Below are positions 24,594-64,000 of a DNA stretch of 64,000 bases, piece by piece. The DNA is taken from assembly GCF_026571515.1 (NCBI RefSeq), contig NW_026857242.1, positions 62,001 to 126,000 on the forward strand, read 5' to 3'. How positions within the stretch are numbered: position 1 is the first letter of the stretch; every line of letters starts with the position of its first letter. Both the position numbers and the translations under genes were made by a program. The notes under the pieces are model-generated. The model worked only from the letters and a program-made list of their open reading frames with translations. It was not told the DNA's origin and searched no databases. The DNA comes from Ruditapes philippinarum. Lineage: Eukaryota.

Positions 24594-27500
24594 ATGGGTT
24601 GCGGAGGATCTAAGACCGCAGGAACGACTCCCAGAGGAGGGAGAAACACCAAGGTAATTATCTTGTCCTAAGTAATTGATTCCTGTAAAGAAGATACAAA
24701 AACTATTTGATAATGTAGGTTACAGTGTGTTTGTTAATATGATGTTTATAATTCCGTAATTTTCCACATTTTAGATCTTTAAATAGTAAATACTGAAATA
24801 TATTTGAAAATAAGGGTTTCCATTCCCCTTATTTCATCCTAAATGTTTATAACTGGGATAAGTTGTAGGCTCAATTTGAATTTGATAATGATTGAATGTT
24901 GAAAATAAGTTACATTTATTTTTTTTGACATGTGTTTAAGGACAACAAAAAAGGAAGGAACAATCAGGTATAATATATATAGCCAATACCACTAATAAAT
25001 AATTGTCACAACGCTTATTTCTTGTTTTCGTATCTATAACCTGTATCATCATTTGCTTATTAGTTTGAATATATGCATTCACTTATTCAGCACTGGTAAA
25101 AGAAACATAGCAAATGTTATAAATCCCATTGTTGACACCTATTAAATTGCCTTTTTGCGAATATTTCTACGCAGTGAACTTCACGCTTTTCGACCATTCT
25201 TCGCATATACAGTACATTTGGCACCTTTTGAGTGTTGTTCGTATAACATTTAACGTATACTATTTAAATCTGTTTACTTTAATGGCCTAAACATTACAAC
25301 AGTTTAGGAATTGTAGGATTATTATTATTTTATGTTAAAGGAAAATGCTCTACAAAGCCATTATGTCATTCTCCAACGTTAGATTTACTGCCGACATACT
25401 TTTGAGTTTCTTAATATATAATAATATGTTAGCCCTACTTTATGTATTAATACCACTTTTACTACTATACTTGCTTCGAGTTCATATTTTTGTTTTCCCT
25501 TCATTACAAACTAAAAGTTATAATAATGCACGGGTATTTTATGTACAGTTGACTCATGTTTAAGTGGTTAGACACCTTTGCATGCTGGTCGGTCTGTATT
25601 CGTTTATCTTAAAATACAGCAAAAATGCAGATACATAAAACAAGGGTCCACAAAAAAGTTAGTAAACAAACTTATTTTAAAAGTCACCATTTTTTCTTAT
25701 CTCTAGTCACTTTGCATAATACTTCTTAATACCCTGCTTTCATTTGCTTCACAAGTACCGATTGATGTATGGCATGCACTTAGATATTAAAATTCTAAAG
25801 AATTTAACTTTTACGACCGTCAACCTAACCAGGACGTGAATGGAACTTTGTCTTCCCTTTTTGATTATCACTTTTTGTGAACGATTAGTGCAAACATTTC
25901 TGTCTAATATACACAAGTAGCACTAAATATGGTAACCACAGAGAAGTTCCAATAGGTATAGCCGATATATTTAGCATGCAGTTCTAAACTTAAACCTTAA
26001 TCTGTAAAATAGTACCGGATTATCATATAAATCATGACTAAAATACTAATAGATATTATATTATATTATATACACTCATAAATGTAGACAATGTAGTAAA
26101 AGAAAATTGTGATGTTTTACGTATATTATTTTAAAAGGAATGCAAAAACATATTTCCATACATTTCTTTATCCATTTATATTTATTAGTCAATTTTGTCT
26201 CTGATCTGGAGTATGTATGTATTAAGCAAATGGATTGTATTACACATATTTCCTTGGTGAATTATTTTCATAATATGTTTACTTTTCTAATGAAATATTC
26301 TTTTGAATTATTTTAAAGGGTGGCAAAGGAAACAATCAAGGAAAAGGAAAGGGGAACAAAAACAAACAGCCCGTAAATGAGAAGGGTTATAAGGTAAACA
26401 CTAGAACCTTAACAAAATAAAACTTTGTAATTATTTTTAATGGAAGCGGTAAAAAGTAAATGCGGCCTTTATCTAAGTTTTCATCAAGACAATAAGTTAA
26501 AAAGGACAGTTCCATATTTATTCAGCAACAGATTTGAATGTGCACACATGTGCATGTATCTGATCGTTAACGATGGTGGTGTTGTTCGTAATTTTCACTA
26601 CGGATAAAGGCACCGCATCGTTCCTGGGCTGGCTGTTAAGAAGTTTACCAGTACTAGTTGCCTTCACTGATAAATTCTGCAGAGGTACAGTGTAAATATC
26701 CGTAGAAATGATTTCATTATCAATCACAACGAAAGTGCTCTGCGCCGTCCGGGAATCAAACTAGGGTCGCCCGATCCGAAGGACCAACGCTCTACCTATC
26801 GAACTAACCGGACAGTTACGGTCGTTTACGATTATCTGCAACTTAATTTTGTATATTTCAGAAACGTATTAGGGAGAATCTGCGTCATGCTGCGGCAGGT
26901 AATGATATAGATGAATTACAGAAATGTATGGAAATATTTGATAATAATCACATGGAAGACGGGGGAGACTACACCGAAGCTGAACAGAGACTAGACTTTC
27001 TTCAAGTTAGAAAAGGTAATTTTAACAAATTTCTGTTAAATATTCATTTACACATCTTTAATGCCTGGAAGCCTATGGCGAGTCCGGTGGCCTTTGCAAG
27101 CACAGTTAAGATCACCGTGGAGAAAAAGGGATGTACGTAAGACAACACAGAGGTGAGATACCAAAACGTGACAGAAATAATTGCCGGGGATGCCGAGTCA
27201 GCTTTTCACACTGTCAGAAAATTGTCACAGTAGCCACAGTGCGAATCGTAATAGGTTGAAGACAACGGTATAAAACACGAACGTTTGAAATAGGCAAACA
27301 TAAAATGTGTAGTAACACGATTGGCGTCGGTTCCAGTAAGGTGTGTAAAGAGCCACACCAAGCTGTAAAGTATTATTTTAGATGTGTGTCGAATATTGAA
27401 TAGCTGTTTCTGTAAACTGAGGTCAAATTTTTAAATAACACTAAGGAAGCGAGGAAGAATGAACAAAGATAGTTGAGTACAAAGAGTAGTCCGAATGTTC

Positions 27501-30500
27501 TCTTCTCAGGAAAGCACCACGCGATCTAGAGGCGTTTCCTGTTCTATCGTCTTCTTCGTTGGAATACATGTTTACCCGTCTTAAGTATCTTAATATGGTC
27601 GGGTGTTTTATTTAATACCAAAGCGAGGGCACACACATTCTCCAAAGCTCTCCCGAGGCATTGACAGAACATGAAAAGCATATCCAACCTGGATGAAGTG
27701 GTGAATAACGTGTGGTAACCAACCAGAACGCATCGGACCAGTGTGCCTTGTAGAAACCGCTTCCAATTGCTTGTCACGGGTAAAGTGATAAACTGTGAGA
27801 ACTCAGCACAACCTAACGTAAAAACTTTGGTATAAATACAAAGACATTTGAATTTTACACGGCGCAATACGTTTTAGAAAAAACAATACCGTTGGCTTTC
27901 ATTTATTTCACCATTAAAGCAAGAAAATGACCATAAAGGATAGATAGGTGAACAACCATCTAAGTTCAGTGATAAACAAATTACATGTTGTTTCCCATTT
28001 TTGTAGGAATTCTAGAGAAACTGAAGAATCATATAAAAGGTCAGACGCACTGATTATCTATTATATTTATTTGTTTTACTTCTTGCAGAGATCCGGGATG
28101 CATGTATGAGGCGACATCCGGTTGTGTTAGAGAAAGCAATACAGAGGGTGGAGGCATCTCCATATAAACGGCAACTGAATGCCTACCTTAACAGGGCATA
28201 TTACCTGAAAAAACATCAAAATGAACTTGATACGTATGTCCAACTATACGGTCTTACTTTTACTTTCATGAAAAAAATTAATTCAATTTGTTTACTTATA
28301 TTCAGATTTATTTATCTGGCATACCTATAATAATAACTATTCTTTAAAGATATGAATATACAAATTCTACATGTTGACCTGATTTTGATATTCTAAATAG
28401 ATTTAAAAATGCAATGGTTGTAAAATGATATGTATGTATTGTTAACATATGACAATCTCATGTATGATTTATCTGAAAGATAAAAATATTGTTGAAATAT
28501 GTATGTCTTAAGTTTAAGTAGATATACCGTTTGCCCGACAGCACCATATCTATCCAAAATAGAACAATCTATGTTCTGGGCACACTTTGAATATGATATT
28601 ATGAAGCCGCGTCATGACAAAACTAACATAATGCGTTTGCGACCAGCATGGATCCAGACCAGCCTGCGCATCCGCGCAGTCTGATCAGGATCCATGCTGT
28701 TCGCTCACCAACCCTATTACAAGTAGAGAAACTGATACCGAACAGCATGTATCCTGATCAGACTGCGCGGATGCGTAGGCTGATCTGGATCCATGCTGAT
28801 CGCAAACGCACTATGTTGGTTTTGTCATGACGCGGCTCATATGTAGTATTTGCAACTGATATAATGAAGCCATATTGAATATGACAATGCTTTTAAAATC
28901 ACTAAAGATACTTGTCAAAGCAAATAAATGAAACATGTTTACAGAACGGACGAGCCAAACAGGTAAATAGTAGAGATAGTAGACAGTTTTGTAACACAGT
29001 CAGGTTTCAGATCTTATTTATAGAAAAAAATGCACACATTTAATACATAGAAAAATATTTTTTACATTTGTGAACAAGATTACAAATTATGATACATGAG
29101 TCTATATAAAACGTGTTACCTCTTTAGATCGTACTCCTGCAAAACAAATCATTAACATTTTGCGCGAGGACGTTCTCTGGTGTAATACAAGTATTTGGAC
29201 CTGTTCTTCAGTCTTCAGGGATTTTCTTACTCTAATACTTAACACAGAAACTGTCTAATTAGATACTGGTCAAATTTTAAGACTGTGTAGTTTGGTTTGT
29301 ATCTAAACTGGTGACATAGTACTGTCGTCACCAAGAGATACAACATAAAAGAAAATTTCAAATTTGTCTTAGACATGTAGTATAATGGAATAGAGAAACT
29401 AAGATTCTCCAAAGAACGCCCCAAAACGGCAAAATTGAAAATGTTGCAGGCTTGGTTTGATTAAACCTGTTCCTAGACGGTACTGTCAAGTGCAAACAAC
29501 CGTTCACGTCCCCTAGCACCGGCTTGAGCAGAATTCAATATCTAAACATGAAATGGCAAAATTTTGAATTTAGTAACAGATGTGTTACAACAGCTACCAA
29601 GCTATCAAGCTTCTGTTTAGTGTGTTTACAATTGTCAAATTGCTTTGCAAATTCATGCATGTATGCTTGACATTGAAGTCGTCTGACATTTGAAAATAGT
29701 TATGGGCAACAACAGCGCAAGATTTATCAACAACTATAATGGCTTATAAATCTATGCAGAAATAATGATGCGTATCACTGAACGTATCAAGAGAAATTTG
29801 ATAATGTGCGAAAATGTATGAGTTCAGTTGACGTCATTTCCTATATCTTTGGAACTTTTTATTAGGATTCATCAAACAATAATTTAGTGAATATAATACA
29901 TTATTAGAATAAGATAAAACATCAAGCTTTCATTTATAGCTCAAAGTTCCAATTGAACTTTTCATTTATAGTAATCAATTAGCTTTTGCTAATCATTTGC
30001 TGATATTTTATGTGAATAATTTGCATAATATATAGCTAGATGTGTATATTTTATTTTGATTGTTTTCCTTGTTAGACATTGCTTTACTCTCAAATTGAGA
30101 TTCAATGCGTTAAACTGGCTGTTTTCTTTGAATAAATGACGAACTGATAAGAAAATTATATGAGATCTTTATCATATTTTTACTAATCTTGTTGTAGTAG
30201 ATGGGTATTGACTATTGTTCATCAGATTCCAAAATAGACTGGATGAAATTTCAAACAGTGTTCTACATTAATAATTGATACCCTAAAACATGCAATACTA
30301 TTGATTCTTTTAACGATTTATGATGGTTGAAGTATTCTGTACAAATATTTGGTGGATAACTAACATTTTGTATATTTATAAATTTTACAATAGTCTATTA
30401 TCACGTAAGCCATGTGTGATAAATAGAATATCATATTCGCGTAGGTCAATACTAAATTTATTGAGCTCGTTGGATAAAACAATATTTAAACAATATTATA

Positions 30501-33393
30501 TTCTCCAGAGGCTCGTATAATATGATTGTATTCAACTCGTTCAATAAATTTAGTATTACACCTTCACTCATCCAATATCCTCTATATACTACTAGAAAGA
30601 CATTTAATTTAAACTTCAAATGTGTGTATAATATCTCTTGCATACTCATAACAATCAGAATTTAAAGTTCTGGGTTTAGATACAATTGTTACATACATGT
30701 ATAATATTAGTGTTTTCCCATTTGTATTTTCAGATTTCGGCATGATATAAGTGACCTTGATCAGTCGACTATTTCAGAGATTCGTAGTTACCACCACCCT
30801 CCTAACGGTGTACATGAAACAATGTGTGCTACATATATGATAATTGGATATCCAGAAAAACACCTCCTGGTAAGTTTGTTTTATCCTATTAATGCACTAA
30901 TTGTGAGAGTATATTTACGAAATGTTAAGAAGAACTTCCACGACATTCAAATACCATGAATGAAGGTCTATGCCAAATTGTATTACATGTATGTAAATAA
31001 AGTAGTTTAGATGGCCCGATACTAGAGTTTTTAATCCAGTTACGTTTTTTTTTTAAATTAATAGAAAGCAAGTTGTAAACACTGTATGTATCTTTTATTT
31101 AAAAAATGAAGACGTTTGTGTTATTCAAATGAATCCATTCACATTTTACGTAATGTTTCGAGTATGACACGTTTACTTGTTGATAGATTTTATCATTGTT
31201 ATTATTTTTAATTGTGTCATGCTAATACAGAAGGTATGTTTATGAAATTTATATCATTTTACAATTATACTCCTTTTATCACATATATACACATATATAT
31301 TCAACTTCTATTTTATCTTTGCTATGACAGCAATTTTATAATTTGCTTACGTGAAACATTTGACTCTTGTTCTTGATTATATTCACCTGTTTATTTGTTA
31401 TACTATCACTATCACATTGTACTATATTCTGATCTTCTATGTTTATACTTTACCCAATATCTGTTCCACATATTTTCTTTCTGCTGTGTAAAATCTTGCA
31501 TATGCCTTCTCTCAATATAGTATAATATTCTAGACAAATCTTGAGTGAAGAATTCTGTCTTTGTTTTTTTATGTTATTTTTTTCAAACTAAAATTATTGT
31601 TTATTTGTGTTTGTTTAACAAAAAAAAAATCGCTGTGCCATTTATAAAATAACTATGCTGTATACATAAAGATTCCAGTTCGACAGAACATGTTCAGTTT
31701 CAGTTTCAATGCTATATTGCAAAACAGAATAAATTCTACTTTTTTACAGATTATTTAACAAAATATAAAAGATATATGTGAGTTGTTCAAAATTGAATAA
31801 TACAGAACTATCTATACTATATCATCAACAAAAGTAATATATTTTGTCTTATTAAAACTAATAATGACCAAGTTCTAAAACTGGATTAGAAATAAAGTGT
31901 TTAAATTGGATTAGTCTACAATGGGTACATAAGTATTTCAATTATTGATAAAAAAAAAACCAATATAAATGTATCTTTTGAATATTTACATAAAGTATTT
32001 CTCGAAACAAATGTTGGTAGAGTTTGAACATATTCATATTATAAATAATAATAATTTGTTCTAGAACACTTGCTATCAGATCATACATCTCACACGTGCA
32101 CTTACCAACAACATCTGCATATAATTATTTTATGGTTTGTTGTCATAATACTATAATACTATAAAAATAATTATTTATGGTATAACAGACTGTCAATTAT
32201 GGACCGATTCCCTAAACCATACGGTTCTTTTTTGTTGATAGTCTTATTATTTTTGTCTTCAGGACTGGACTGAAATAACAGCTTTGATGGGTCGCTATGG
32301 TAAAGACAGTTTGATAAGAGAGGTTCAAACAGTAGACCCCAACAAGATAGACAAAACAACAGCTTTAAGGGCGAGGAATTACTTGGGTCAGTACAGCTTG
32401 GAGGAGATCAGAGTAGGCAGTACTGGTGCAGCGGCATTTTATGTATGGGTAAGGAAATCCTTTATTATCAAAACAAGTCTTGCGTGCTGAAGAATGTTTA
32501 ATTTTTATTATAACTTGGCACAAAAAGAATACCTTTCCCAGTTATAACATTTAGATAAAACAATAGAAGAAGATGTATTTTCAATAGACGAAATGAAAAT
32601 GTTAGCAAAGGAAATTAAAGTTTCAGTCTGAAATACTGTGTTAGACTAAAATTAAAGTGTCAATATTAATAGATTCACACTTTAAACAATAAACAAAAGT
32701 ACAAATATTGGATGCTTAAATTGCTGTCTGTGAAATTTTAAACTCTTCTCTTCAAATTGTCCAAACATAAATGCCCTTTGTATCGTTAAAAAGGCTTTTA
32801 TATGTTAAGATTTATACGCATCCATTTTTTGTTGTTTATTTCTTATATATTTTTTTTATTTTTCATTGAATACTACTAGTATAGTGTTTGTATTTATGTA
32901 TAAATATTATACATGTATATACTTTTTATAAGTAAAACATTTATTTAAGTAATGGCTAATGTAATGGCTAAATAAATTGTATATTCAGGCATCAAAAATG
33001 GTCGGCAAGCCAGACGGCAAAGCCACAAAGGGTGAAGATACTTCTCCCAAAAAGTTAACTAACTCCGGCGGAAAAGGACAACAGGCGTCCAACAAAGGGG
33101 ACAATCAGCCGAAAACACCAACCGCATCAATGCGAGATGAAAATACTAAGCAAGCCAAGCAGCAATCGAATATGAAACAAAAGAATAACGCGCAAAATAA
33201 CGCCAAAAATAACACAAAGCAGACACAAAATACAGCAAAGCAGACACAAAATACCGCAAAGCAGACACAAAATACCGCAAAGCAGACACAAAACACCGCA
33301 AAGCAGACACAAAACACCGCAAAGCAAGGAAAAGACAATAAAACCAAACAAGCAAACGGCAGTGTCAAAGCAGGGTCTACAAAGAAGGGGTAG
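24594..33393 (+). CDS. Gene B: N-myristoylation/palmitoylation-motif protein with helical repeats, a dynein MTBD-like domain and a basic Q/N/K repeat tail (395 aa)
   Basis: Exons 24594-24653, 24941-24967, 26319-26393, 26862-27015, 28089-28233, 30734-30869, 32263-32448 and 32989-33393 all have GT-AG boundaries and join in frame (1188 nt). The protein starts MGCGGSK and is colinear with the C-terminal third of gene C. Confidence 0.85.
26560..26813 (-). mobile_element. tRNA-derived SINE (Meta/Deu-domain-like body) in a gene B intron
   Basis: The minus strand begins gtccggttagttcgataggtagagcg (box A-like), then gtttgattccc (box B-like), then gattgataatgaaatcatttctacgg. Confidence 0.7.
28602..28839. 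mobile_element. Full-length palindromic MITE (family M1)
   Basis: Near-identical arms to 5636-5876, ending tgacgcggctca. Confidence 0.9.
29400..29580. repeat. Dispersed repeat family R2, partial copy
   Basis: gacggtactgtcaagtgcaa..ccctagcaccggcttgagcagaattcaa matches 16890-16960. aaaatgttgcaggcttggtttgatt matches the reverse complement of ~56300-56330. Confidence 0.75.
30423..30584. mobile_element. Degenerate palindromic MITE
   Basis: aatactaaatttattgagctcgttggata and tattcaactcgttcaataaatttagtatt are inverted repeats around a gaggctcg core. Confidence 0.65.
33205..33326 (+). repeat. Coding 21-bp minisatellite (KQTQNTA x~5) in the gene B last exon
   Basis: aagcagacacaaaa(t/c)ac(a/c)gca repeated in frame within ORF 32977-33393. 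Confidence 0.95.
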
Positions 33394-38538: not shown

Positions 38539-41500
38539 ATGGGGAACGGTAATTATAAGTATAAACGACCTCGTTCACATATTCGGCTTCTTCCCAGAGA
38601 GCCATTACAAGAAAAGGTATACCGACAGTCTGTTTTATCAAACAACCAGATGAGTAACTATAAAACTTTAACAATTAACATTGTAGTACTTTTTGGTGGA
38701 CATCTGTTTCTGGTATTGACAAAGTCATACATGTATTTGTGACAATTGTTGAGCCATCCAAGTTCAGAATACTGACAAACATTCAGTTCAGATGAATTCT
38801 TCTTCTCTGTGTTACGTTAAGAGGAAAACTTTTTAAGATTATTTCGGAGTTTATTTCCAAAATTGATAAGAGTATTAATATAAAAGTACTGCTGCGGCGG
38901 GATAGCAGTGCTGAAATATTTCTATTTAGATGAAATTAATTGTATGTAACTTTAGCATTTTTTGTCTCTTTTTTCACAGTTTAATATTCCAGAAGTTGAA
39001 AATGGTTATCCGGTGCCAAAGAACGCATCTACACCAAAGAAAGATATTTACAACCCTAAAGACAATAGGGATATCTACTTTCATGCTTTAAATGTAAGTT
39101 TACTACAAGTAATGTGAGGTAATACAGACCAATTATACAACAAATAAATTTATTTATAAGTTGTTTCCCTTGTTCAATCATTATTATATAGAGACATACG
39201 TTAAAACTACCTTTGATTCACCATTCAGTTCTAGCAATTTTGCCAGATTAAAAGATTAAAATTGATTGTTGTATAATATAGAAACGGAAAGAGGACAATA
39301 AAAGTTTTGTGCTGACAGAGTTTCTACGGTTGCTGTATATTCGGATGTGTACGTGTTTGACTGTTTTTAATTAATTCCAGGCGCCTAAAGATATAGAGAA
39401 CTCCTGGGATGACCTCGTGCATTATTTAACCTCTATATATCGTACTGACATGATGAAAGTCCGATCCATCTTTTCCTGGCTAGGCGTGCAGGAAATAGAA
39501 AGCGAGAACTACTTTTTTGTGCCAACACCAAACAACATTGATGAAATAACTCCGCGGGGTTACAAAAAGATCATTCAGGACAGAGAAGGGTCATATGCAA
39601 CCTTGTTTGCCCTCTTATGCAGGTTTGCAAATTCGCATTATCTTTGAAAACTATTCCGTGGAAAAGTATGCTTTGGACAACTTAAAGTTTACAAATTGAA
39701 TAGTGTTTTTGTACCCAATTAAGCACAACGTTATTGTGACAGCAAACAGACCAAGTCAAACATTAATCTCTTGTTTATGAAAAATAAGGCAATTTTTTTT
39801 TAGTTTAGAAACACCAGATATATCAATTTTTCAAGGCAGTACTGTTTTACGTAACTGGTTTCATATTTTATACCAGGATGATTCATTGTTACAGCTATGA
39901 AGTAATTTGAAATGACAACTATCAAATCTCATAAATTGGGCTTTTATGGAAAGTAAAGAAATTTGGTATTTTCATACGAAACATTTTCTAGTTGATTGTG
40001 TTTCTTCATATTAGTTATCAACATAAAATGTGCTCTATTAACTTTCAATGGCTTAAATAGTTTCATTTTACGACTGACAGCAGGATGCTTTTAATGTGGG
40101 TGTATATTTTTACATATCTGTTTGTGCTTACAGTTTGATTTTGTTGAATGCACGGATGGTATAATAGTTCTTATGATTTATAATTGGAATCAAATAATAA
40201 AGAATTGAAATATGACTTCAGATTCTAATTTTGAATTATATTCTATACAGATTAAAATAAGCCAAGTCTATCTAATGTGATAGAATGCTTTCGTTGCATG
40301 CACATTTTGCAAAAAGGGGGAAGTATATGAAACTGGCAAGTTAAAAAAAAACCTCCCAACTGTTATAATTTTCCATCATTTCATGTTCTAGCATGCAAAG
40401 CTTTCCTTCTCAGAAAAAGTTGCTTTTGCGACATGTTTTCTTCATCAACCATGCATGTTAATTCTTTGGTAAAACACTTGTTTCCCACGTAACCAAAGAA
40501 TGTTCGTCAATATATCTTTAAACAGTTCATGAATAATTATTTTCATTATTTTTTTAGGAAAGCCGGTATAAGGTGTGCAATCATCAACGGTTTATCTAAG
40601 GGTTTTGGATATGATGTTGGTGAAACGGACGTATCTCACTTGAGGGATAGGTGGAATGCTGTGTACATTGACGGCTGGCGTTTGATACACCCGTTATGGG
40701 CTTTCAAAAATATCATTAGCTTTAAACGAGGGAAATGGGGACCTGAGAATGAACTTGATAAGGTCAAAGTTGAGGATATTGATGACGAGCAAGAAAAAGT
40801 CGTTCAGCACGATTTTAACGAGTATTATTTTATGGTTGATCCACTGGAACTGATAAATGTATGTTTGCCTGATGATGAAAGATGGCAGATGATCACACCA
40901 AAGATTTCGAAAGATAAATGGATAAACATTCCTTTTCTGATGAAGAGGTACCACATGGAAAAATTTAAAATCACAAGTGAGTTTAAGTCGACAATTAAGT
41001 CAAAACATGGCGTATGTGGGCTCGTAATTCACGCGCCATCAAACAAAGATAGGGACTACCAATTAGCATATGATCTTTTCTTTAATTATGCTGAACAAAA
41101 GGTTGAGCTGGATGATCCCATTCATTTGAACAGGTACGTGATGTTGGCGAGAGATAGTTCCAAAAATAACTGGTCATTGGAGGCAAGAATGCCTGTTGCC
41201 GGAGTTTACAGAATCACTGTCTATGGTGGACCAAGTATGAACTCAAAGCTGCCATGGATCTGCGATGTTGCAGTTAAATGTAACAAAACATACAAGAAAA
41301 TAAAGCCGTATCCAGACTGTCCTAAACTTGGTTTTGGTCCAGTGTATATGACAGAAAGAGCGGGACTCACTCAACCATCTCACCCGAACGGAATGCTTTT
41401 TGTAAAGCCAAGGTCGACCTACCATATCACCTTCAAACTTAAACAATCAATTAAAGAGAAAGCCAGAATAATCGGAGAAGGCGTAAAGGACAGTGAAATG

Positions 41501-44500
41501 GAGAAATGGGTCACAACAACCATAAATAACCAGTCGTCCTTAAGTATTTTAGATGTAGTTGTACAATTATTACACGAGGGAGAATACGCGTTGAAGATTT
41601 TCTCCAAACCAGCCATTGAAAGATCGAAATCGACATGGGAGAATGTTTGCAACTATTATTTGAGTACTGATCCACCTAGGGCAAATGGAGTTGAAATAAA
41701 AGATAAAGGATTTAAGGTATTTTATGTTTGCCGAGTAGGATTTTAAAAACAAGACTTTCAATGAAACTTCTATTATTCTTGTGTTCTTTTTTATTGATAT
41801 AGTTTGTCCACAGAATTTCCTGAAACTTTGGAAATTCCCTTTGAGTTTCTTATAATACTTTAATTTATCATTTGAATAAGATCAAATTTGTGTCAATTAT
41901 GTAATGATGTTGCATATGAATAGAACTGTCAAAACATTTAATACTTTACAATTATAATAATTGTTTCAACTTCAAATGATTATTACTGATTATTGTTTTC
42001 AGACTGCAAAGGAAATAAACGCACGGAAAGCTTTGCAAGAGGCCAGTAAAGGAAAGGACTTGCACGAACTGAAAGCAGCAGTGGCTGGGTTCGAGGAGGC
42101 AGGACTTTATGAGGAGGACGGTTCATTCGGTAAAGCCTCGGTAAAAATGGAGTATTTAGAGTTAGCAAAAGGTAAAAGACAATGATATAAGTCAGGAACA
42201 GTGTTCCTTCTTATAAACAAAACAATATTTAACAATTTAGTAGCTATTTTTGTATTTTTTGTACAGGCGCTAATATTAGTTGTGGTCACTAAATAACCTT
42301 GGAGAGGAACCGGCATCATTGTTGATACATGAAGTGGTATGAAGTTTTATGCAGTGTGGATTTATTATGTAATGATGTTGCATATGAATAGAAGGTGCGC
42401 ATGTTTGTAGGGTTGGTAATTCTTTATTTATTTTTCAACAAAATGAATGTTCATTATAGATAAAAAGTAGGTTGTGGCATACAAATTGCTGTGTATATGT
42501 ATGTAAAATATAGACACTATCTTTTTATTTTAGCTTTGAAAGATGCTATCAATCGTCGAAACTTTGACCTTTTGACTAAAGCTATAGACCAAGCAGAGCT
42601 ATCGGACCACGCCATTAAGCTCGGTAACCTTATAGAACAAGCCAAGGCTGAGCGAGAAAAGTTAGGACCATTCAACAAGTACATGCATGATGTGTTAGAA
42701 ATGAAACAATCAACTATTTCTGAACTGACAAGCTATTCCTATCCTACAGGGGTTATATTTGACATTCTGAAAGCAACTTTGATTCTATTAGGAGAAAGTC
42801 CTCTAGATATACAGGTAATGATTTTGTATGTGTCCTGTTCTTATATTCACTTATGTCGTTTAAATTACATTATTTAAAAACAAGCCTCCTTTATAAATGC
42901 AATTAAGTAAGTGTTTGTAAAAATTCAGTCAATGGTTATCTATAGTACATGTATATACTCGTATATTACCTGAAATGGAGAAAAACACACACTAAAAAGA
43001 TTAAGTGTATCGTGTAAGTATAAAATATCAACATCGTATAACAGCACAAGGAATGTCTGTGGCTGCACCCAGGAGCACCTTATTATAAGTCTTTCTCCAT
43101 CATTTAAGCTGGAAGGTGGTCATATGACCCTAAGTGTCGGTGTGACTTAATATTTCTCCTCGCATGCCCCCGCTCCACAAAAATATGAATAAATAGCAAA
43201 ATTAGATTAATAAGAAAGAAAAATAAAAAATAGATAAAATAAAATAAATTAGAAGCACTTCATGTTAGTAGAATTGCTAAACAACTAGACTAGAAACAAT
43301 TGGAATCTGACATTGTAGTTGTTTTGTTTTTTAAATTGTTTGATTAATAAAGTTGTTTCATTACATTGCTTTAAGAATCTTTTTAGCTTTTGTAGAAATT
43401 GTATTGTTTGTCAGTGTCTTGCTTTCAAGATATATAGATATGCTACTGAAATCATTTGTCATTTTGAGAAATGAACCAAATATAGATGTGGAGCTAACGA
43501 ATGTCATGAATCTCTCAAATATTTGCCCCACTACCAAAACAAATACTGTGGTATAACTCCTTTGTTCACATGACATAAACCTATTAGATATTTTGCATGA
43601 AAATACTGTAATCGATAGTGCAATGTTCCGTGCAAAGTTAACATAATTTATAAATAATTTCTTTGCAACTTGTTTATACAAATTAGTCATATACATTGTG
43701 TTGCTATAAATTTGAGATTGTATCACGCTTCTACAGTTTTCAAAACGCAGACAACCAAGAGAAGACACGGATTCCTGAACATACTCGATATTTTCTATTT
43801 CTTAATAGATATTATCTTGGTTTGACATGCAACATGTGGTCAATACATTGAATAAAACAGGAGATGACGTCATTAATCTCGCGTTAAGTCTTTGTCTTGG
43901 CATCCGACGATTACTATCTTAATTTCAGGATGCCAGAAAGCCATATTGAAGTAAAGAATATATTACACTGTAACACCTTTGATATTGGATGAAGCTGATT
44001 ATTGATTGAACAATTCTATTTTCTAGACATGGGAGGCAACAAAAGCTATATTCAAACGCACCGGAAGTGGAAGTATTATGCGCAGAGTGCGGGCATTTGA
44101 TGTGAGTAAGGTTTCAAACGATAAAATGATAGAAGTTGGTTCTATTATCTCAAAATATGACGATGACAGCGCACGAGCAGCGAGTGCCGGAGCCGGAACT
44201 TTCTATAAATGGGTAAAAGAATGAATTATAAATAATTTTGGCTTTGTAATAATTCTTATCGCATGGTTTGGAACTTTTCCCTTGTTCTTACTAACCCATT
44301 ATACTCAGTACACTTTGTATGAGCATTTGAAAACTGTATTGATATATAGCGGTACAGTTTTTTCATTGATTCATATAGGAAAAAAACTCGACTGCTATAT
44401 AGCGGTTGAGTTTTTTCGCACCTTCTTTATATCAGTGTAGTTTTTTTTTCACTGAGGCTCCATTGGGACAGCGGTAACGAAAATTCCCAGAAGCAATAAT

Positions 44501-52969: not shown

Positions 52970-55900
52970 ATGGGTTGCGGAAGTTCATCAGAGGCATCCG
53001 ATCCAAATAACAATGAAAAGACCGGCAAACAGACGACAAAACCAGTCCCGAGTAGATCAAACAAGACCGGGCAAGAAACTGGGAACGACCAGAATCAGAA
53101 TAAAGGGGAACGCGGAGCACTTCCGATTTTGAAGGACGAGCCAGAAATCGAAGATGTAGGTATCATTTTGTTTTCCTTATTTCTTTTCCTGTAATTTAAT
53201 ATGTTTTGGGTTTTTTTTTCATTAAAGTGTGATCTCGCTTTTGCGAATCACGCGGATTTAGTTTATCCATCAAGTGTCTTATAGTTTTGTTTTAGTAAGC
53301 ATTCGCTACTATAGAAAATTTAAAAAAAGACTGGAATACTTATTCAAAGACACTACAATTCAGTCGAGTTGTTAAAAATATTCCCGCCTTGATTTGAAAA
53401 AAAAAATGTGTTTCATTAATAAATGTATTTTTACAAGATAAATGGATTTTTAACAAATTCAACACATAAAAAAGTTAGATATTTGATAAGGCTGTAATTT
53501 TGTAAGCAATATCTATCTGAACAGCTACATTTAAATGTTCTTCGGCGCAAACTATTTCATTTAACTCCACGCGAGGTTAAATGTCTGACAATCCTGAATG
53601 TCTACTAATATACACAATAATAATATAAACATGCAAGTCGTCGAGTTTCTTAAACCACATTAAGATAAATACTAATGTATACATGCATGTCTGTCATATA
53701 GATATATGATATTATTTTATATCTGATTTTTTGTTTTGTTTTTAAAATGCAATCAGACATCTTGATCTTATGGGTGATAGAGTGTTGAATGTAAATAATT
53801 GTTAGATATTAATATAATATAGGTAGTTTATTATACCGGGATCTATCAAATATACATGTACAATGTCATGTACAACGTTATTAATTAAAGACCCGTTATG
53901 CTTAAGAAATGCTTTTCTTTTTATTTCTAAAAATATTATATTTTTGTTGTCCTGTTATAGTTATACACATTGGCCTAGTACCTGAAACATCTTTTGCGGC
54001 TGATGTTTTTGTTTAATTCGTATAGTTATAATGAGTTGGAACTTAAATTCTACATTGTTTACATTTTGCTACTTTTATGACAAATAATTTAGTGTCGTTG
54101 TCTTCAGGTGATAAGTTTAGTATCTAACATGCTTTCATTTAAGCATTATTAAACGCATGTTTACCATTTCAGTAAAAAGAATTATCAATTTCAATAAATA
54201 AATTGTTTCTTAGGCATAATATGCCTTTAAGTATACTAAAAATTGTTGCGTACAGTACGCTTTATTCATTACTCGTACATGTTCAGAAGGCAATTAATGA
54301 AAAATACAACTTTTCAGATTTTCCTTTGGGTTTAAGTAAATAAGTTCGACAGATATACAATGAAAAAAGAAAGTGCTCGCATGCTTTTACGTTAAATCAC
54401 ACTTGCTTTCAGATCGAATATTGTCTGATTTTATTGACCTGTCAATTATGAATACATTATAGCACTCATTTAAATATTCGACCCCACTTCGGTTTGGTCC
54501 GTGTAGTTTACGAGAATTAATGTGGAGTATAAAAGTCATATTTTGAAAGTCAGGCCAGCTTAATGTGAAGGGTTTCGTTAATTCGCAATAGCGCAGTCGG
54601 TTAAGAGAATGCCTGATAATTGAGAGGTCTGTGGTTCGATCCTTACTGATGACATTCTTTTAGGCTTTACTCTCTCTTTATTTTTGCAATATATTTTAAT
54701 GGAACCGATTTGTAGTGTGTTTTACGGCATTGTAAAGACATTTACTGATTTTAATCCGTTTTAATTTAAACATGAATTCTTAAAACATGTTATTTAAAAA
54801 GAGTATAGACTTTGCAAAATTAAGTAAAACATAATAAAACAAAACAAACAACATAAAAAATAATCATGTGTAGCTTTAATAATGTTGAAAGTATTAATAA
54901 GAAAAACAACAACATGGACCAACGCGGTCTCGAACTTAAAACATCTATGGCACTTATTATTGATTATAAACTCGTGCTTTACCCTATTGCGCTATAACGA
55001 TCAGTTCACTTAGTTCATACAAATTAAATTAAATTCCATCGTACAGCGTACATCTCACGGAGCTGACCGAAAATCTACCGAAGATTAATATATTGTGTGC
55101 ATCGACCGTGTAATCAGTATGTAATTGACAGGTTAATAAAACCAAACAATAGCTCATCAACACAATTGTTTTTTTAGTTTATCTATGCATGCTCTATAGT
55201 TCATGTGTACATTTACTGCATTAAGGTATATGTGTTCCATAAATGAAATAGAGAGTGAAGATTTACGATTTGAGTAAAAGTAAACGTATTCCATAGTTAA
55301 CAAGAAAAGCATTGATGCAAAGCATCAAAGGGCGACGCCAAAAGAATTTGATCCAGATTTGCACCTAAATACTTAACAAAAGATGTGTACTTTATAGCAG
55401 TACCATTACATGTGACCTGGAGGCTATGGCCAGGTTAAGTTGAAACTTAAACCAAAAAAGAATAGACTCTGTCTTGCCAAGATGCAAAGGCAATTTATAG
55501 TCAATTAAGCAATCTTATAAGACTCATGTTATAAGAAAGAATTTCTTCAGATTTCATTTATGAGACACAAGGATTCCTGAGTCATCAGCATATAATCACA
55601 GGCACGAGTATCAGACCTTGGATGAAAAAATATGGCCAGATTGATAAAAAAACCTGTGTTCATCTTAAACATCTTAAAAAATAAAATGTAAATAATGACC
55701 CCCTTTAAAAATATACTTCAAGTTGAAGTATATTTTTAAAGGGGGTCATTATTTACATTTTATTTTGGTTGTTGACACTTTTAAGATGAACACAGGTTTT
55801 TTTATCAATCTGGCCATATTTTTTCATCCAAGGTCTGATACTCGTGCCTGTGCATTATAATAAAAGCTTATTGCTTAGGGTTGAAGACATGTGATTGACA

Positions 55901-58900
55901 TATATTAGACATAAAAGAGGACCTAAAATGAACATCAGGGGGACAGCATAGGTACTCAGAGCAGTAGTAGAATAAGTACCAGCCACATCAACCAGCTACT
56001 ATCAGAGATAAGACTTAACCTCTGATCCCCGTTCAAAATTCCATTTTATTTAGTTCCGCCCATTGTTTTCTCGTTTAGGGCACACGCTTTTTATTACTTG
56101 GGGACCATACGCCGCTTTTCATGGAATGGCACGGAAGTGTCACATTGAAGGTTCTATGATAACCGCCGTATGAACACATCTGCGGATGTTTCTAAATTCA
56201 AAATTTTACTGTTTCGTGTTTAAACGTTGAATTCTGCTTAAGCCGGTGCTAGGGGGCGTGGACGGTAACTTGCACTTTCCAGTACCGTCCATGAACAGGC
56301 TCAATCAAACCGAGCCTGCAACATTTTCAATTTTGCCGTGTTGGGCTTTCTTTAGGGATTCTGTATTTATCTATTAAACCATGTAAGAATGTCATTATAT
56401 ATGGCAGATGCTTGAAGTTTCATGAAGAAGAAGAAAAACAACTTCTTCATGTGCAGGATAGTGTGTTTAACTGTATCAAATGCCCTTTGTAGATCTAAAA
56501 GTATCATGCAATACTGCCTTTGTCCATTTCAAATAATGCAATCTGTTAAATGAATCAAACATGTGTCAATTGAAAAACCACTTCTAAACCCTGACTGAAA
56601 CTGCCTGACCATGACTCAAACCCATGACTTTCAGAAGACCAACTGAGCTATCCGTCCTGCTACACATTTTCTCTTTAATAATGAAACAGTTCTAAAACCA
56701 CAACATATTTCCCCACTATATCGATTTGTGGTCGTGAATTTCTTATGTTACAGAGCATAGGAAATTGAACTCATGCTTATATGCAGTCATAGGATGAGAA
56801 AAACTTTGAGCTTGACCAGAAACTCATTAACCTGTGACCAACATAAGAAATTTTATGAAGGCTGATTTGTATTTTGCATCAAGGGCACCGGGCAAAAACA
56901 TGAAAAATGCAACAAACAAACCACTTTGTGGTAGATTGTATTTTCATGTTTTCATCTGGCGCCCAGTTACTTTTTGTACTATGTTGTTTTTCTTTTTCAC
57001 CATTGTTTTCATGTGGCACAAATCACCCACTATAAATTTAGTGCACAAATTTATTCAAGGGCAAGTAACAATCTACTCTATGTACAGTCTGTTGTCGCGT
57101 TGACTCAGGAGACCTGGAGGTTGAGACCGGTGTCTCTTCATTACAAATAGATAAGACAGAAGCTGTCCTTTTCAAACTATGCACATGTTAGGAAAAAAAT
57201 AGAATAACTATTCAGAATATGATTTTTTTTGAACTTTATTAATTATATTGCTTGATCCAAGTTTAAGGACATTTTCAATCAATACATGTTTATCATTTAT
57301 AAACTTTAAATGAAAGTCTCATCCCTTTAATAATAATGAATAACTGTATCTCTTAAAATGCAGAAAAATTATAAGTCTCAACATATCAATATACTACTGT
57401 CTAAGATATACATGTACATGCACATAACATTAATAATTCCCAGTTTATATTAAATTAATATGAAATCCTAACATTAACATTAACATGCTTTTGATGACCT
57501 TACAACTGGTGAATTATATACAACAAAAATAGTATTATAAGTAATACCTAAGATAGACAGAAAAGAACAAATAATTTAGTAAACATAAGTTTACTTCCCC
57601 TTTAAAATAAAGAAAACCTGAAACCCAAAAGAACACGATAAACAGCAAAATTATGAAATGTTGCAGGTTCAATTTTATCAAGCCATGCAAATTAATGGTA
57701 AAGTATTCATAAAAAAATAGATGGCCATGTGTCAGCAGTAATTGCAGAAAATCGGATAGCTTTCAACATCCGGATACTGGTACACTTGTAAAAAAAACAA
57801 CCATTCTGCGCAACAGATAAATGTAATAAGGATAAAATCAATAGGATAATCGTTTACAAACAGTTCCATTACCTATCCTTATACTCAATTGCAGGTGAAC
57901 TTTCTTCTTGTAGGAAAATTTTGAAAATGTATAAATGATACGGCCTCAATCTAGACCACAACGATATTCGAAATCCGGGTTTTAGTATTGTCATTAAAAC
58001 TAAGGGACAAGCTGTTAAACTTAACCCGCAATTTCGTGAAAATAATATCACAATGCACATGCTTTTTACATAAAGTTATTAAATACAAATATAACAACAC
58101 ATTTGTTTACTTGATTTTTACGAATCAAAATAAAACTAATTTACACAACATGAAATTAACTGCTAATAATAACAGCTCCTTCCATAGGCAAAAATAAAAA
58201 GCGTTCCATAATAGACGACGCCGCTCACCGGCGTCGCCAATGAACGACAATGAATTTGCATATTTACATGTACTTTTAAGTTAAGTATACGTGTTTCATA
58301 TTTTATAGATGAGATAGAAAGTGCACATCTACAATTTGGGTTAATTTATACGCGCATGTTCCAAATTTCATAAATGAAATAGAAAGTGCACATTTTCTAT
58401 TACATTAGTTAAAGTGTACGTGTTCCTTAGCTCATATATGCAATAGAAAGTGTACATTTACTATAAGATTAAAGTCTACGCGTGCCATACTTGGAAATAG
58501 AATGAAATAGAATGTGCGAATTTACAATTTGGGTTAACGTAAACATTTTCATAGTTAATGAACAACATTGAATATGCATATTTTCTATTAAGTTAAGTGT
58601 TTCATGGTTTATAGATGAAATAGAAAATGCACATTTACTATACGGTTAAAGTATTCGCGTGCCATAGTTCATCAATGAAATAGAAAGTTCAGAATTGTTT
58701 TTATGTTCAGTTTTTCCCGTCAATAGTTCAACAATAAAATAGAAAGTTCACAGCTGGTTTTACATTCAATCGATCAGAGATGAAAACGAAATTACTAACG
58801 CACATTTAACCGATTTGTCAAGCGACAATTACTTATTGTTCACTATTATATTTCATTTGCTCTTATATATAAGATATTCTGTCCGGTTGGGAACACACCG

Positions 58901-61900
58901 CATTTGAAATCTAGCGGCAGCCAGTCCGATCCTTGGGCGTGACGAAATTTCCCCTCAGACATAAAGATTTTATAGTCATTGAAATAGAAGCCTTTTACTT
59001 GCGGAGAACTAGGTAATTGTTGGTAGGTAATCCAGGAAATCCCGGTTGGAAGGCATAAAATGCAAAACAACCAAAAAAAGAATATGAAACTTAATTACAT
59101 ATTTATTTCAGTAAATTGTTCCCTTCTGATTACTTTATTCAGCTAATCAATATTATAATGCTATTGAAATATCAAATAATTATATGTTGCCTTATGTATA
59201 TTTAAATAATTTAAACATTGCATTATGTATGAGCTTGGATTCAGATACGCAGAAGCAAAATCATATTTATCTATGTGTTTGATTTTACGTATGTGTTTGT
59301 TTTTACATCAAAAAATAAATAATTAACGTCAGAATTACTCTAACAATGAGGTTTAACTTTAGAGAGCCTTTTTTATTAAACCAAGCGTTTAGTTTAGGGA
59401 CTACCTCAGAAGCGTAAACTATAAAGAAATAATGATATATAAATTTATAATATACGAGTACAAGGAACTGAACAATAAACAAACAAGAGCAAAATCAACT
59501 TCAGTGTAGTCCCGAATTTATTTACCTCATTGTACGTAGAGTGTTCTGATGTTGAAACATGTGTTATACATGTAATTTGAAAGCTCAAATGAACTCAGTT
59601 TGTGCGTATAATAAAACAAAAATCAATTAACAATAAAAACGGTTTCATATGATTTATTTTGTATCAAAGCCAGTATGTGAAACGATTTTAATAGCCAGTT
59701 TCTTAATTGGTCTTAAATGGCATTACGTTATGTCAATAAGTCGATGATAGCATGTTGGATAATATCAGACAAGAAGAGAACAAAATAATAAAGTCATTCC
59801 TAATCTATATTAATTTCAATCCCTTCTTAAATAAAGAATCATTTTTTATTTATGGTGTCAGATATTATAAATATATAGGTAAAGGTTACATATAAAGCAA
59901 ATGCTATAAATTTTATATACACAATGTAAATATATGTACTAATTACGATTATTCTGATAATTTTTAAACTTATCTAATTGCATTAATTTTGTGATCTAAC
60001 TATAGATTGTTATCATCTACATGATTTTTGTTGTTAACCTTTGTTCTATTTTGATATATAATGGTTTTGTCTATTTTGTTTGAATTCAGGTGGACGTAGC
60101 GAAGACAGAGGCAGGATATCCTGCCGTCAAAGTGCCAACAGAAAAAAGGGACGCCATCTTTAATGCCAGTAAAATGAAACATATTGATGAAAAAGCGAAA
60201 CAGGTAATGTTGTATCCGTCTATGTTGAGTACCTTGTTTACAATTTTTTGTTAAACAGGCAAATACATGTATCTTGAATAAGATGCAAATACAGCCAGGC
60301 ATGTGGAAAAGTAATCACATTCAAACCAAAACCCTTGAATCTAAACCATTACCAATAAAACAAATCATTCAGAACTTTAAATTCATCCTGTGATGTTGTC
60401 CATTTAAATTGAACAATCATGATAAAACAATCAATTTAAAACTGTATTTCAGACCCCTGCTGATAAGGCAAACGACTACCAAGAATTAATAACACACCTG
60501 ACATCATTCTGTAAGACTGATGTGGAAAAGGTCCGCTCCATCTTTTGTTGGATGACCTGTCAGGACGTGGACAATGCAGACTACTCTTCTGTTACCGATA
60601 GCGACACTCCATTAGGGTTTCTAAAGCTAATCCGAGACCACAGAGCATCCAAAGGTTCCTTCTTTGCAGTTCTGTGTCGGTAAAATATTAAATAATTATT
60701 TACAATTAGTATTACATTTCATGTGGAAGATTTAATCGATTAACAATCCTTTTATATAAAATGATACTTGATGTAGTCTAGGGCAAAACTAATCGTGATT
60801 TTGAGTATCATTTTCCATATTAGAGATACATTGATATATATTTGAGCCCATAAAATACATTTTTTATACTATATAGCTAGATAGTCCCCAAATATGTATG
60901 CATGTTTGACGTTTTTAAACTATTACCGAGCATTTCGGATATACATATAACAAGTTCAATGTGTTCTCATGCATAATTATAACATAATTATAACAATAGG
61001 CATGCGAACATACCGTGCGTTATTATCAACGGTTATGGAAAAAGTGTCTCCTATGATGTTGGCGATCCTGACGAGAAGGTGATGACACTAAATAACAACT
61101 GGAATGCCGTGTATGTGGCTGGGGGATGGCGTCTTGTGTTTCCTTTATGGGCAAGTTCTGGTGTTGTAGGACATTCCAGTGGGGCTTACACCAAAGTGGA
61201 GTCAAAAGGTAACACCGAGTAAATTAAATTTTTAAACATACACAATTTATAGATTTATGGCTGAATATATATTTTGTAGCACACAGTAGTCGTTGTCTCT
61301 TGATTATTATACAAAAATGGTTGAATTTGAAGAGTTCGGCAACATTTCTTATACTAATCAGCCAAGATTGTCAGGCTCCTTTACAAATATAAAGGTAAAA
61401 AGGAAGAACACCTTTAAGATGGTGACAGCTAGCTATGAGCATGTCAGATTTTGCGCATAGCAAGCCGATTGCGTTTATTTGAATTGATTCGTAGGACGAA
61501 TTTAAAAAGATTAGAAAGGATTAAAAAAAATTATGATATTTTATACAGATTGAACTATCATTTATTCCTGGCTTTACATACTTCTTCTTCTTATGATATG
61601 AGAAGACGCGTTCTGATAATCGCGTTTCACACGTCACACCTTTAATAACTAAACATTGCTATTATTTCTACAAACTGAAGTTGATATATGTTTGTGCTTT
61701 ATTCCAGACCCCATACCGGGTAACTTTATTCATTTTTAATTTCACGTGTAGAAAGATGATGACATAAAAAGTAGATAAAATTATAGGAGTAAAAAAACAA
61801 CAACAACAAAAAAAAAAACAAAAAAAAAACACGTAGATTTCTACTTTAAAAGTAGAAATATATTTAGTAAACGTTATTTTAAGTTTTATTCTTTTGGCCA

Positions 61901-64000
61901 GATAAAAAGTAAAAAACAGTGTTAGATAGACTGTATTTTCTATGGAATGTTCCGAACTCAATTTCTTTGATACGATCATAATTTCAGTATTTGCTATGTC
62001 AGTTTAGAAAGTATGCTTTCCTTCCTTAAATTCTTTCAAAACGAAAATATATATAATTATATATAGTTTACATCATAGTTTTATTAATTCTTTTTTTTTT
62101 TCTAAATAATTGCTGTAATAAATCGCAAACATTAATTTTTAAATATTTTGTATGCATTAAAATTTTAGTTTTTTTTTTTTTTCCCCAGTACTTTTTCCAA
62201 CTCTTTTTTAAATAGAAAAAACAAATCCTCCATGTTACTAAAACCACAAGGGAAGTTGAATATCATTAAACCCATCATTTTAAACCCGATTAGTCAATCA
62301 TACTTTACTTACTTTGAGTTTTCTACCAAAATAATGATTTCATTCTATATAATAATAATTTTATGATAAATGATGATTTCTTTCATCAATTTTTATTTTC
62401 TCCTGATTTCTTATGTTATTTATTTGTCATCAAATTCTGATAATTTTTGGATTTAACTTTTTATGGTTATATGACTTTTTTGACCACCATTATTAAAGGC
62501 TTGTACATAAACAGGCTTTATCAAAGCAATTTTACCGCTTTGTGCGTTCTTTGGGGATTTCGTTTTCTCTATTTTGTAGATTTTAATTTTTTTAGCTCAA
62601 GTTCGATTTTCTTATGTCTGTTTATTTAAGCAAACTTCTTACATTTAACTAACTTTTCGTATGTATTTAAGATTATGAAGAACTTCATAAATCTCTTGTT
62701 ATACAAATAAAGTTTCGTACCATACTTTTTATCATAACAGTCAAATATACATACACATGTACGAATCAACCATTTTCCTAGTTTTGTATAAACATAATGA
62801 GAATATACTGTTAAAATGTGTACAAGAAGATCAATAAAATATGTTTTAAATCTAAAATGCATGTACGAATATTAGCTAAATTATTTGTAATCAGGGTTAA
62901 TCTCGATATAAAAGACAAAAAAAAAGAAAAATAAAAACGTTTTTTAAAATTTTTTTGATATTTGAAAAAAATATGATTAAAGAAAAAAGGTATTAATAAT
63001 TTGTAATATTTCAAATTTCCCTAGTTCCCGGGCATCTTTTTAAAATAAAAATAGGGGAAAAACTGTTTTGTGAAAAAGGGAAAAGGAGGCTGCTGGAACC
63101 CATATTCAAAAATTGGACGATTACTATTTCTTTACCGACCCAGAAGACTTTGCATATGTGGCACTAGCAAAGGAGAAGCGATGGCAGCTTTTGGCTAGGC
63201 CTTGGACTGTGCAAAAATTTGCTGACGTACCGTTTTGTTCACGCTATTATTTTGAAAAAAAAAGTAAAGTTTTTAGTGTTTGTTTTGGGGGACTAAAAAA
63301 AAAAAAGGGAAAGGAAAAATGTCCCTGTGGGAAAATTTGGGGGTGAGGGAAACCCCAAAAAAATGGGATTTTATTACGAATTATATTACAACCCTAAAAA
63401 ATTTGGGGAAAAAAATATCGGGCAAACTTTGCAGCTAAATAATTTTGTACTGTTAAAAAAAGATCTGATTTTTAAAAGGGATTTTTTTGGGAAAACGGTT
63501 TTTTCCCAAAAAAGGAATTTTAAAGCTGGGAGATAGTAGGTGGAAGGCATTAAAAAAAATAAGAATGTGTTTCATTTTTAAAATTTTTGTAACGAAGTTC
63601 AGGAAAAACTGTCCCCATAACCCCTTTAAAACCGGGAAAAGTTGGGTATGGACCCCAAAAAGCAGATACTGAAATTGCCGGAAACAAAAACAACTTTACA
63701 TCAATCCGGAATAGTCAAAGTGTTTGCACGAAAGGAAATAGTTCTTAACTTCAACTTAACAAGAGACATACAAGTAAAAACCGAGCTAGTACACAATACT
63801 TTATCAAAAGAAGAATTATCGAAATATATAAAACAGACACAGTCAAACAGAAATGTTAACGTTCAAGTGAGCGTCCCGGAGAATGGAGAGTATGCTCTAA
63901 CAATGCATTCAAAGCAAAAGAATGAAAGCGAATTCAAGAACGTTTGCAATTATCTGCTCAGTTCAGAACATGGAAAGAAAAAGAGGATTCGAAATTGGGA
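52970..64000 (+). CDS. Gene D: second KY/hillarin-like transglutaminase pseudoenzyme with an MGCGSS N-terminus; 3'-incomplete, last visible exon has apparent frameshifts
   Basis: Exons 52970-53155, 60090-60203, 60453-60679, 61000-61208 and ~63055 to beyond 64000. Motifs include GYP, KVRSIFCW, FFAVLCRHANIPCVIINGYGK, WNAVYVAGGWRL, DDYYFFTDP..RWQLL and PENGEYAL..KNVCNYLL. The frame is broken in homopolymer runs at ~63250-63690. Confidence 0.82.
54421..55149. mobile_element. ~730-bp element with terminal inverted repeats and a tRNA-like segment in each arm
   Basis: The left end ttgtctgattttattgacctgtcaatta matches the reverse complement of the right end (ttgtttggttttattaacctgtcaatta). An inner pair tcggtttggtccgtg / cacggagctgaccga and box A/B-like motifs occur on both arms. 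Confidence 0.65.
55597..55852. repeat. Near-perfect 256-bp palindrome (young foldback/MITE-like element)
   Basis: cacaggcacgagtatcagacc...ggtctgatactcgtgcctgtg. The centre ...atacttcaa-g-ttgaagtat... has a 1-nt spacer at 55722, and there is one short asymmetric internal mismatch. Confidence 0.92.
56061..56365. repeat. Dispersed repeat family R2, longest copy
   Basis: Reverse complement of 16881-17121, plus an extension shared with 20181-20250 and 29400-29470. Confidence 0.88.
58245..58765. repeat. Degenerate ~60-bp tandem repeat, ~8-9 copies
   Basis: atgaaatagaaagtgcacat.. recurs at ~58308, 58373, 58437, 58501, 58557, 58614, 58674 and 58733. A related fragment lies at ~55180-55300. Confidence 0.85.

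Follow-up and report, generated by a model that had tools for sequence, protein, structure and literature searches.

A mollusc gene that joins a predicted lipid anchor to a module resembling the dynein microtubule-binding domain and lacks the transglutaminase core of its neighbours

Gene B lies in a stretch of 64,000 nucleotides from Ruditapes philippinarum (the window; contig NW_026857242.1, positions 62,001 to 126,000 of the forward strand). It encodes a short protein with a predicted lipid anchor at the N terminus and, further downstream, a module that, judged by profile homology and predicted fold, is a homolog of the dynein microtubule-binding domain (MTBD). The gene is expressed and is spliced without exons for the transglutaminase (TG) and immunoglobulin (Ig) core that is present in its neighbours. 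What is new here is this minimal, expressed, mollusc-wide and motor-free MTBD-like form.

The gene consists of 8 exons between positions 24594 and 33393, all 7 of its introns are of the GT-AG type, and the exons join into a single reading frame of 395 codons. The coding features are as follows.

24594..24653, + strand: gene B coding exon 1, with the start MGCGGSK and predicted myristoyl-Gly2 and palmitoyl-Cys3
24941..24967, + strand: gene B exon 2, 27 nt, basic linker, alternatively skipped
26319..26393, + strand: gene B exon 3, basic G/K/N linker, ending EKGYK in phase 0
26862..27015, + strand: gene B exon 4, first helical unit, homolog of the gene C exon at 42003–42171
28089..28233, + strand: gene B exon 5, second helical unit and the long helix into the MTBD-like domain
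28945..28962, + strand: optional gene B micro-exon, 18 nt, in RefSeq isoforms X1 and X3, flanked by AG/GT in the window
30734..30869, + strand: gene B exon 6, MTBD-like H1–H2 with the invariant Glu169
32263..32448, + strand: gene B exon 7, MTBD-like H3–H6, 186 nt, the same as in gene C
32989..33393, + strand: gene B exon 8, predicted disordered basic Q/N/K/T tail of net charge +18, stop

By eye, the product reads identical to the 395-residue RefSeq protein XP_060594843.1 of R. philippinarum (LOC132749161), which was reached by a search with exon 7. The three RefSeq isoforms of this locus differ only by the skipping of a 9-residue exon and by a 6-residue micro-exon, and none of them carries a TG or Ig domain. 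Exon 2 is absent from RefSeq isoform X3; among contigs assembled from four runs (also numbered X1 to X4), it is skipped in runs X1 and X3 and included in runs X2, X3, and X4. The 395-residue spliced product contains neither an AAA+ ring nor a CC1/CC2 stalk, and the MTBD-like domain is followed by the predicted disordered tail, which contains a 21-bp × 5.8 repeat. In a model of the full-length protein, both the linker and the tail are unstructured.

A preliminary description of the locus had stated that the TG and Ig core is missing from gene B and that no such exon lies in 24968–26318, and this is borne out. When family TG and Ig profiles were compared with all 2889 six-frame segments of the window, the best E value inside gene B was only 3.3; in genes C and D, the same profiles matched the main exons with E values of 1e-16 to 1e-70. 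Intron 2 of gene B is 1351 nt long, which is shorter than the 1515 nt of the three exons encoding the TG and Ig core of gene C, and the window does not contain any N. In contigs from 4/4 runs, representing four studies, exons 3, 4, and 5 are joined directly in series at the predicted GT-AG sites. The sides of the exon 3/exon 4 joint in these contigs measure 76, 19, 75, and 75 letters, and single contigs in runs X1 and X4 span the 5' untranslated region to exon 5 without a TG exon. The three downstream joints are also present in contigs of 2/4 runs, and the micro-exon is not among the contig joints listed. The four runs are presumed to be RNA, in agreement with the GT-AG joints. Two raw-read runs are uninformative either way: most exon bins are covered only about 0–3 deep, and the rows listed include no exon joint. 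A very high-copy repeat in intron 5 (28605–28842) attracts most of the reads mapped to the gene.

These joints confirm that gene B is expressed and spliced without TG exons; no transcript with a TG exon and no assembly gap was found. Among the allelic coding differences from gene B that were listed, 13/14 are synonymous and the remaining one is in the tail, which supports purifying selection on the gene.

The C-terminal module, which the preliminary description had called MTBD-like, is assigned by profile and by predicted fold. A core profile matched dynein stalk tips in the Protein Data Bank (PDB) with a best E value of 1.2e-7 when made from 11 sequences and 1e-14 when made from 43. An AlphaFold model with a pLDDT of 87 was compared with 48,161 structures; the top five are dynein stalk or MTBD chains with Z scores of 9.4–13.2, and the next row has a Z score of 8.4. 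Superposition on 8i3j gives a Z score of 12.2 and a root mean square deviation of 2.9 over 114 aligned residues. The module is thus predicted to adopt the helical H1–H6 layout of the dynein MTBD, as that layout is given in the accessible part of PMC6629372. Two further entries in the structural comparison that bear no dynein label, 9fqr_Xl and 9ya2_L (Z 7.9, within noise), were not used; the text of PMC11779644 and PMC12819142 available to us mentions no dynein-like fold. Matches in the ESM Atlas were clusters from molluscs and, at 0.77, a single cluster labelled MT, which we treat as a lead only.

The micro-exon at 28945–28962 inserts 6 residues, among them a proline, in the helix that leads up to the MTBD-like domain. 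In the model of this isoform, residues 155–164 are predicted as coil, where the shorter form has a helix, and this local prediction is weak because the insert is found in only 1/38 alignment rows.

All 19 near-length matches to gene B (clams, oysters, scallops, mussels, and an ark shell) are without TG and Ig domains, and the near-length orthologs share 50–78% identity with gene B over the core. Further TG-less orthologs occur in gastropods, a chiton, and a freshwater mussel, so that the TG-less MG-MTBD proteins sought in other lophotrochozoans by the preliminary description do exist in bivalves, gastropods, and chiton. Gene B belongs to a mollusc-wide TG-less subfamily and is not a local truncation of gene C.

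A search with the module profile yielded 1200 cluster representatives at E 0.001 or better, of which the best 150 were examined. For phylogenetic analysis, 111 rows were retained that cover at least 180 profile positions, after removal of 8 near-copies and one fused model and addition of gene C. In this tree 28 TG-less short forms constitute one clade, the B clade, among TG-bearing clades, with a Shimodaira-Hasegawa-like approximate likelihood ratio (SH-aLRT) support of 99. In a 59-row subset, support is 95/73 for the 15 B rows and 99/88 for the main 11. TG clades flank the B clade in both trees, all named B-clade matches are molluscs, with no cephalopod among those listed, and a TG-bearing form is present in a brachiopod. 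Grouping the B clade with other TG-less architectures was rejected by the approximately unbiased (AU) test (p-AU 0.005 and 0.0045), and placing it as sister to the gene C clade was not (p-AU 0.12).

Taken together, these sequence comparisons favour an origin of the gene B form by loss of the TG and Ig exons, and suggest that the loss is ancient. The rooting counts against a firmer statement: the trees (LG+G4) were midpoint-rooted and had no outgroup, and the groups for the AU test were set only once the first tree had been seen, so that loss is favoured only. The gastropods carry a second, more diverged TG-less copy (rows P0039, P0044, P0050, P0212, and P0213).

The N terminus of gene B has the Gly2, Cys3, and Ser6 motif on which, by the rule for such N-terminal acylation, the predicted myristoylation of Gly2 and palmitoylation of Cys3 are based. 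An MGC start is found in 21/28 B-clade rows; of 16 further matches, 13 have MGC from residue 1. Most bivalve orthologs close with a basic stretch and KG (33370–33390 in gene B), although their tails vary from 24 to 336 residues.

The module also occurs without TG in proteins of coral, amphioxus, tunicate, and hemichordate. Predicted transmembrane helices precede it in 9/27 of the other TG-less architectures examined, and this recurrence with different membrane anchors fits a membrane tether. The helical and MTBD-like module stands at the C terminus of EF-hand-like, CD20-like, CLCA/VWA, and EGF proteins (P0042, P0073, P0085, P0089, P0092, and P0095), which come from gastropod, amphioxus, tunicate, and hemichordate.

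The surface by which dynein contacts tubulin is partly retained. Six salt-bridge residues have been described for yeast dynein, of which E3122 pairs with α-tubulin R402 (accessible portions of PMC7042235 and PMC4298687), and the H1 glutamate is treated as the key partner of α-tubulin in the section of PMC4298687 consulted. The yeast contacts given in the available part of PMC7042235 were placed on the alignment, and the numbering was consistent for all named residues. Two of the six are in place in gene B, two have a basic residue that is adjacent or ambiguous, and two are lost. Glu169 corresponds to E3122 and is a glutamate in 110/111 family rows; Arg171 corresponds to R3124, a position with Arg or Lys in 24/28 B-clade rows. 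The R3159 position falls in a 3-residue insertion, near which gene B is basic at 210 and 213, and at the R3201 position an Arg is found one place earlier; in 24–26 of the 28 B-clade rows there are basic residues at or next to these two positions. By charge, gene B is divided into a linker of +11, an MTBD-like domain of −4, and a tail of +18.

Combining these features, we consider it possible, and only slightly short of probable, that the gene B product is an acylated, motor-free tether between membrane and microtubule, with weak affinity and an assisting basic tail. Myristoylation of Gly2 and palmitoylation of Cys3, together with the basic linker, would hold the product on the cytoplasmic face of a membrane. 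The two helical units are predicted to form a short rigid spacer that would substitute for the coiled-coil stalk of dynein. The MTBD-like domain could then dock weakly at the α/β-tubulin interface, with contacts made by the invariant H1 glutamate and by basic residues close to it, and clustering at the membrane, with the basic tail, might provide the avidity that is missing from the acidic domain. Its history would be explained by a single duplication, no later than the mollusc ancestor, and subsequent loss of the pseudo-TG and Ig exons. A wider proposal, which we regard as unlikely, is that invertebrates hold an undescribed class of membrane-microtubule tethers derived from the dynein stalk tip without its motor. 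Gene B would be its minimal form (lipid anchor, spacer, and MTBD), kept since the mollusc ancestor, and the helix-breaking micro-exon would set affinity by splicing, as opposed to the ATP-driven helix sliding of dynein.

Several observations weigh against the tether. The full-length product has no Pfam family at cut-off, its single-sequence match to Pfam MT (E 0.025) is below the cut-off, and no Foldseek match reached E 0.001, nearly all rows listed being dyneins. On the contact surface, yeast K3117 is replaced by Gln in 25/28 B-clade rows, gene B included. In gene B, R3152 is replaced by a non-basic Thr, and no basic residue stands exactly at the R3201 position. The MTBD-like domain is net acidic in 26/28 B-clade rows, and, counted by hand, the yeast MTBD stretch is +2 compared with −4 in gene B; the invariant H1 glutamate could have been kept for folding instead. 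The tail is only 16–45 residues long in scallops, mussel, and gastropods, so that strong tail avidity is not general, and 18/27 of the other TG-less architectures have no predicted transmembrane helix. Both B-clade rows with a non-acidic domain belong to the diverged gastropod copy.

The foremost alternative, which we regard as possible if somewhat doubtful, is that gene B is membrane-anchored but its MTBD fold has been repurposed for a partner other than tubulin, for example a septin or a protein linked to actin or to cilia. The net acidic domain with its lost basic contacts would agree with this, as would the family-specific 3-residue insertion relative to dynein in the H3 region, and related pseudo-TG proteins work with septins and Rho at the cleavage furrow (PMC3718969, as far as its text was available). 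In contrast, the best-kept residue across the 111 rows is the one with which dynein reads α-tubulin, and the loss of R3152 would be tolerated, since axonemal dyneins also have no equivalent of this residue.

As regards history alone, gene B could stem from a TG-free gene of anchor and MTBD, with the TG core gained by its paralogs. We hold this to be distinctly unlikely. The TG-less occurrences of the module in coral, amphioxus, tunicate, and hemichordate would fit such a gain; the trees lack an outgroup, and neither of them stars the branches by which the B clade is nested among TG clades. However, gene B is separate from those TG-less forms (p-AU about 0.005), TG clades flank it, and a TG form exists in a brachiopod, whereas the named B-clade matches are all molluscs.

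The relation to the paralogs leads to a further alternative. Two related genes follow on the same strand.

38539..44212, + strand: gene C, 7 exons modelled with the last exon excluded; TG-like domain, KY-type Ig domains, helical and MTBD-like module
52970..64000, + strand: gene D, running past the end of the window; begins with MGC; exons for TG-like and Ig domains

Gene C begins with MGNGNY, an MG start without Cys3, and its long exon matches Ig-like_KY domains (E 1.6e-27) that are absent from gene B. The module of gene D falls beyond the window. Genes B and C are 28% identical over 219 residues (E 6e-23), and the three downstream introns of gene C coincide in place and phase with introns of gene B. 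Exons 5 and 6 of gene B add up to 281 nt, the length of gene C exon 6, and exon 7 is 186 nt in both. The paralogy that had been proposed for the two genes is upheld by this sequence comparison, which points to common descent of the C-terminal module. The EKGYK and DKGFK junctions, described earlier as the same, agree in that both close phase-0 exons before the first helix and disagree by an offset of 4 codons: the distance from intron to conserved Leu is 7 residues in gene B and 11 in gene C, so that a 4-codon indel is needed to match them, exon 4 of gene B having four codons fewer at its 5' end. The DKGFK word is not kept in the freshwater mussel ortholog of gene C. The junctions are probably the same intron, and are the weakest feature that the two genes share.

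The TG domain of the paralogs appears from its sequence to be a pseudo-enzyme. Of 53 TG-bearing rows examined, 52 carry the motif. At the positions that we take to be catalytic, not one row has a His where it is expected, two residues ahead of the conserved Trp, and just two rows show a Cys close to the site of the nucleophile. Catalytically inactive TG-like members with roles in cytokinesis and the cytoskeleton are known (PMC3718969, available part). With the catalytic triad missing, what gene B lost would be an interaction domain and not a catalytic one, and there is no active enzyme for which it could serve as an inactive decoy.

There is only a slim chance that gene B acts mainly via the full-length paralogs, whether by competition for sites or by pairing through the helical units. 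It does keep anchor and module without the TG-like interaction domain, it adjoins gene C, and in Potamilus the locus numbers of the B and C orthologs differ by three, and their scaffolds have the same length. Against this, B orthologs are 50–78% identical across bivalves compared with 28% between B and C, which fits a function of its own, and the paralogs offer no enzyme to inhibit; the earlier suggestion of a competitor accordingly finds no direct support. That gene B is an assembly gap or a decaying truncated duplicate has a negligible probability, given the absence of N, the direct splicing, the three TG-less RefSeq isoforms, the mostly synonymous differences, and TG-less orthologs in many genera.

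Elsewhere in the window, the TG/Ig exon of gene D at 63074–63745 is split across several frames in a region with long homopolymer runs, for which a sequence error is a likelier cause than a pseudogene. An upstream gene at 9777–12383 encodes MAM domains and a likely transmembrane segment, and the open frame at 188–796 resembles what we take to be a retroelement fragment.

No description of the gene B protein or its module was found in the literature searched, nor of an MTBD-like module in the KY/hillarin family; supplements to mollusc proteomics studies may list orthologs under dynein-like names. Orthologs are labelled 'cytoplasmic dynein 2 heavy chain 1-like' or 'kyphoscoliosis peptidase', being neither. 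If the proposed tether is correct, it would account for the C terminus of many mollusc KY-like genes and for the membrane proteins of amphioxus and hemichordate that carry the module, and binding of gene B to microtubules would define a direct lipid-anchored tether. As the simplest member, gene B is suited to learning what the invertebrate module does.

By its domain content, gene B is neither a dynein nor a member of the KY family. With the dynein heavy-chain MTBD (PF12777 MT; PDB 6KIO, 6KJN, 3ERR, 8I3J, and 5AYH) it shares homology over about 105 residues, the same predicted helical fold, the H1 Glu and Arg, and entry by a long CC1-like helix. Unlike dynein, it has no AAA+ motor and no antiparallel stalk, and its domain is preceded by two helical units and followed by a disordered tail; it also differs in its predicted lipid anchor, its net acidic domain, the lost equivalents of K3117 and R3152, and the 3-residue insertion after H3. 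The KY (kyphoscoliosis peptidase)/hillarin/LTD-1/Cyk3 family (PF01841 and PF23265) supplies the domains of genes C and D, with which gene B shares introns and C-terminal module. In contrast to that family, it lacks Transglut_core, in protein and locus, as well as Ig-like_KY, and is a relative by descent, not by domain content. With dual-acylated MGC proteins such as the Src-family kinases and G-alpha-i, only the anchor is common (Gly2, Cys3, Ser6, Lys7, and a basic stretch). Whereas the MTBD of dynein is normally controlled by the motor through the stalk, gene B appears to be a natural, motor-free version of 220 residues.

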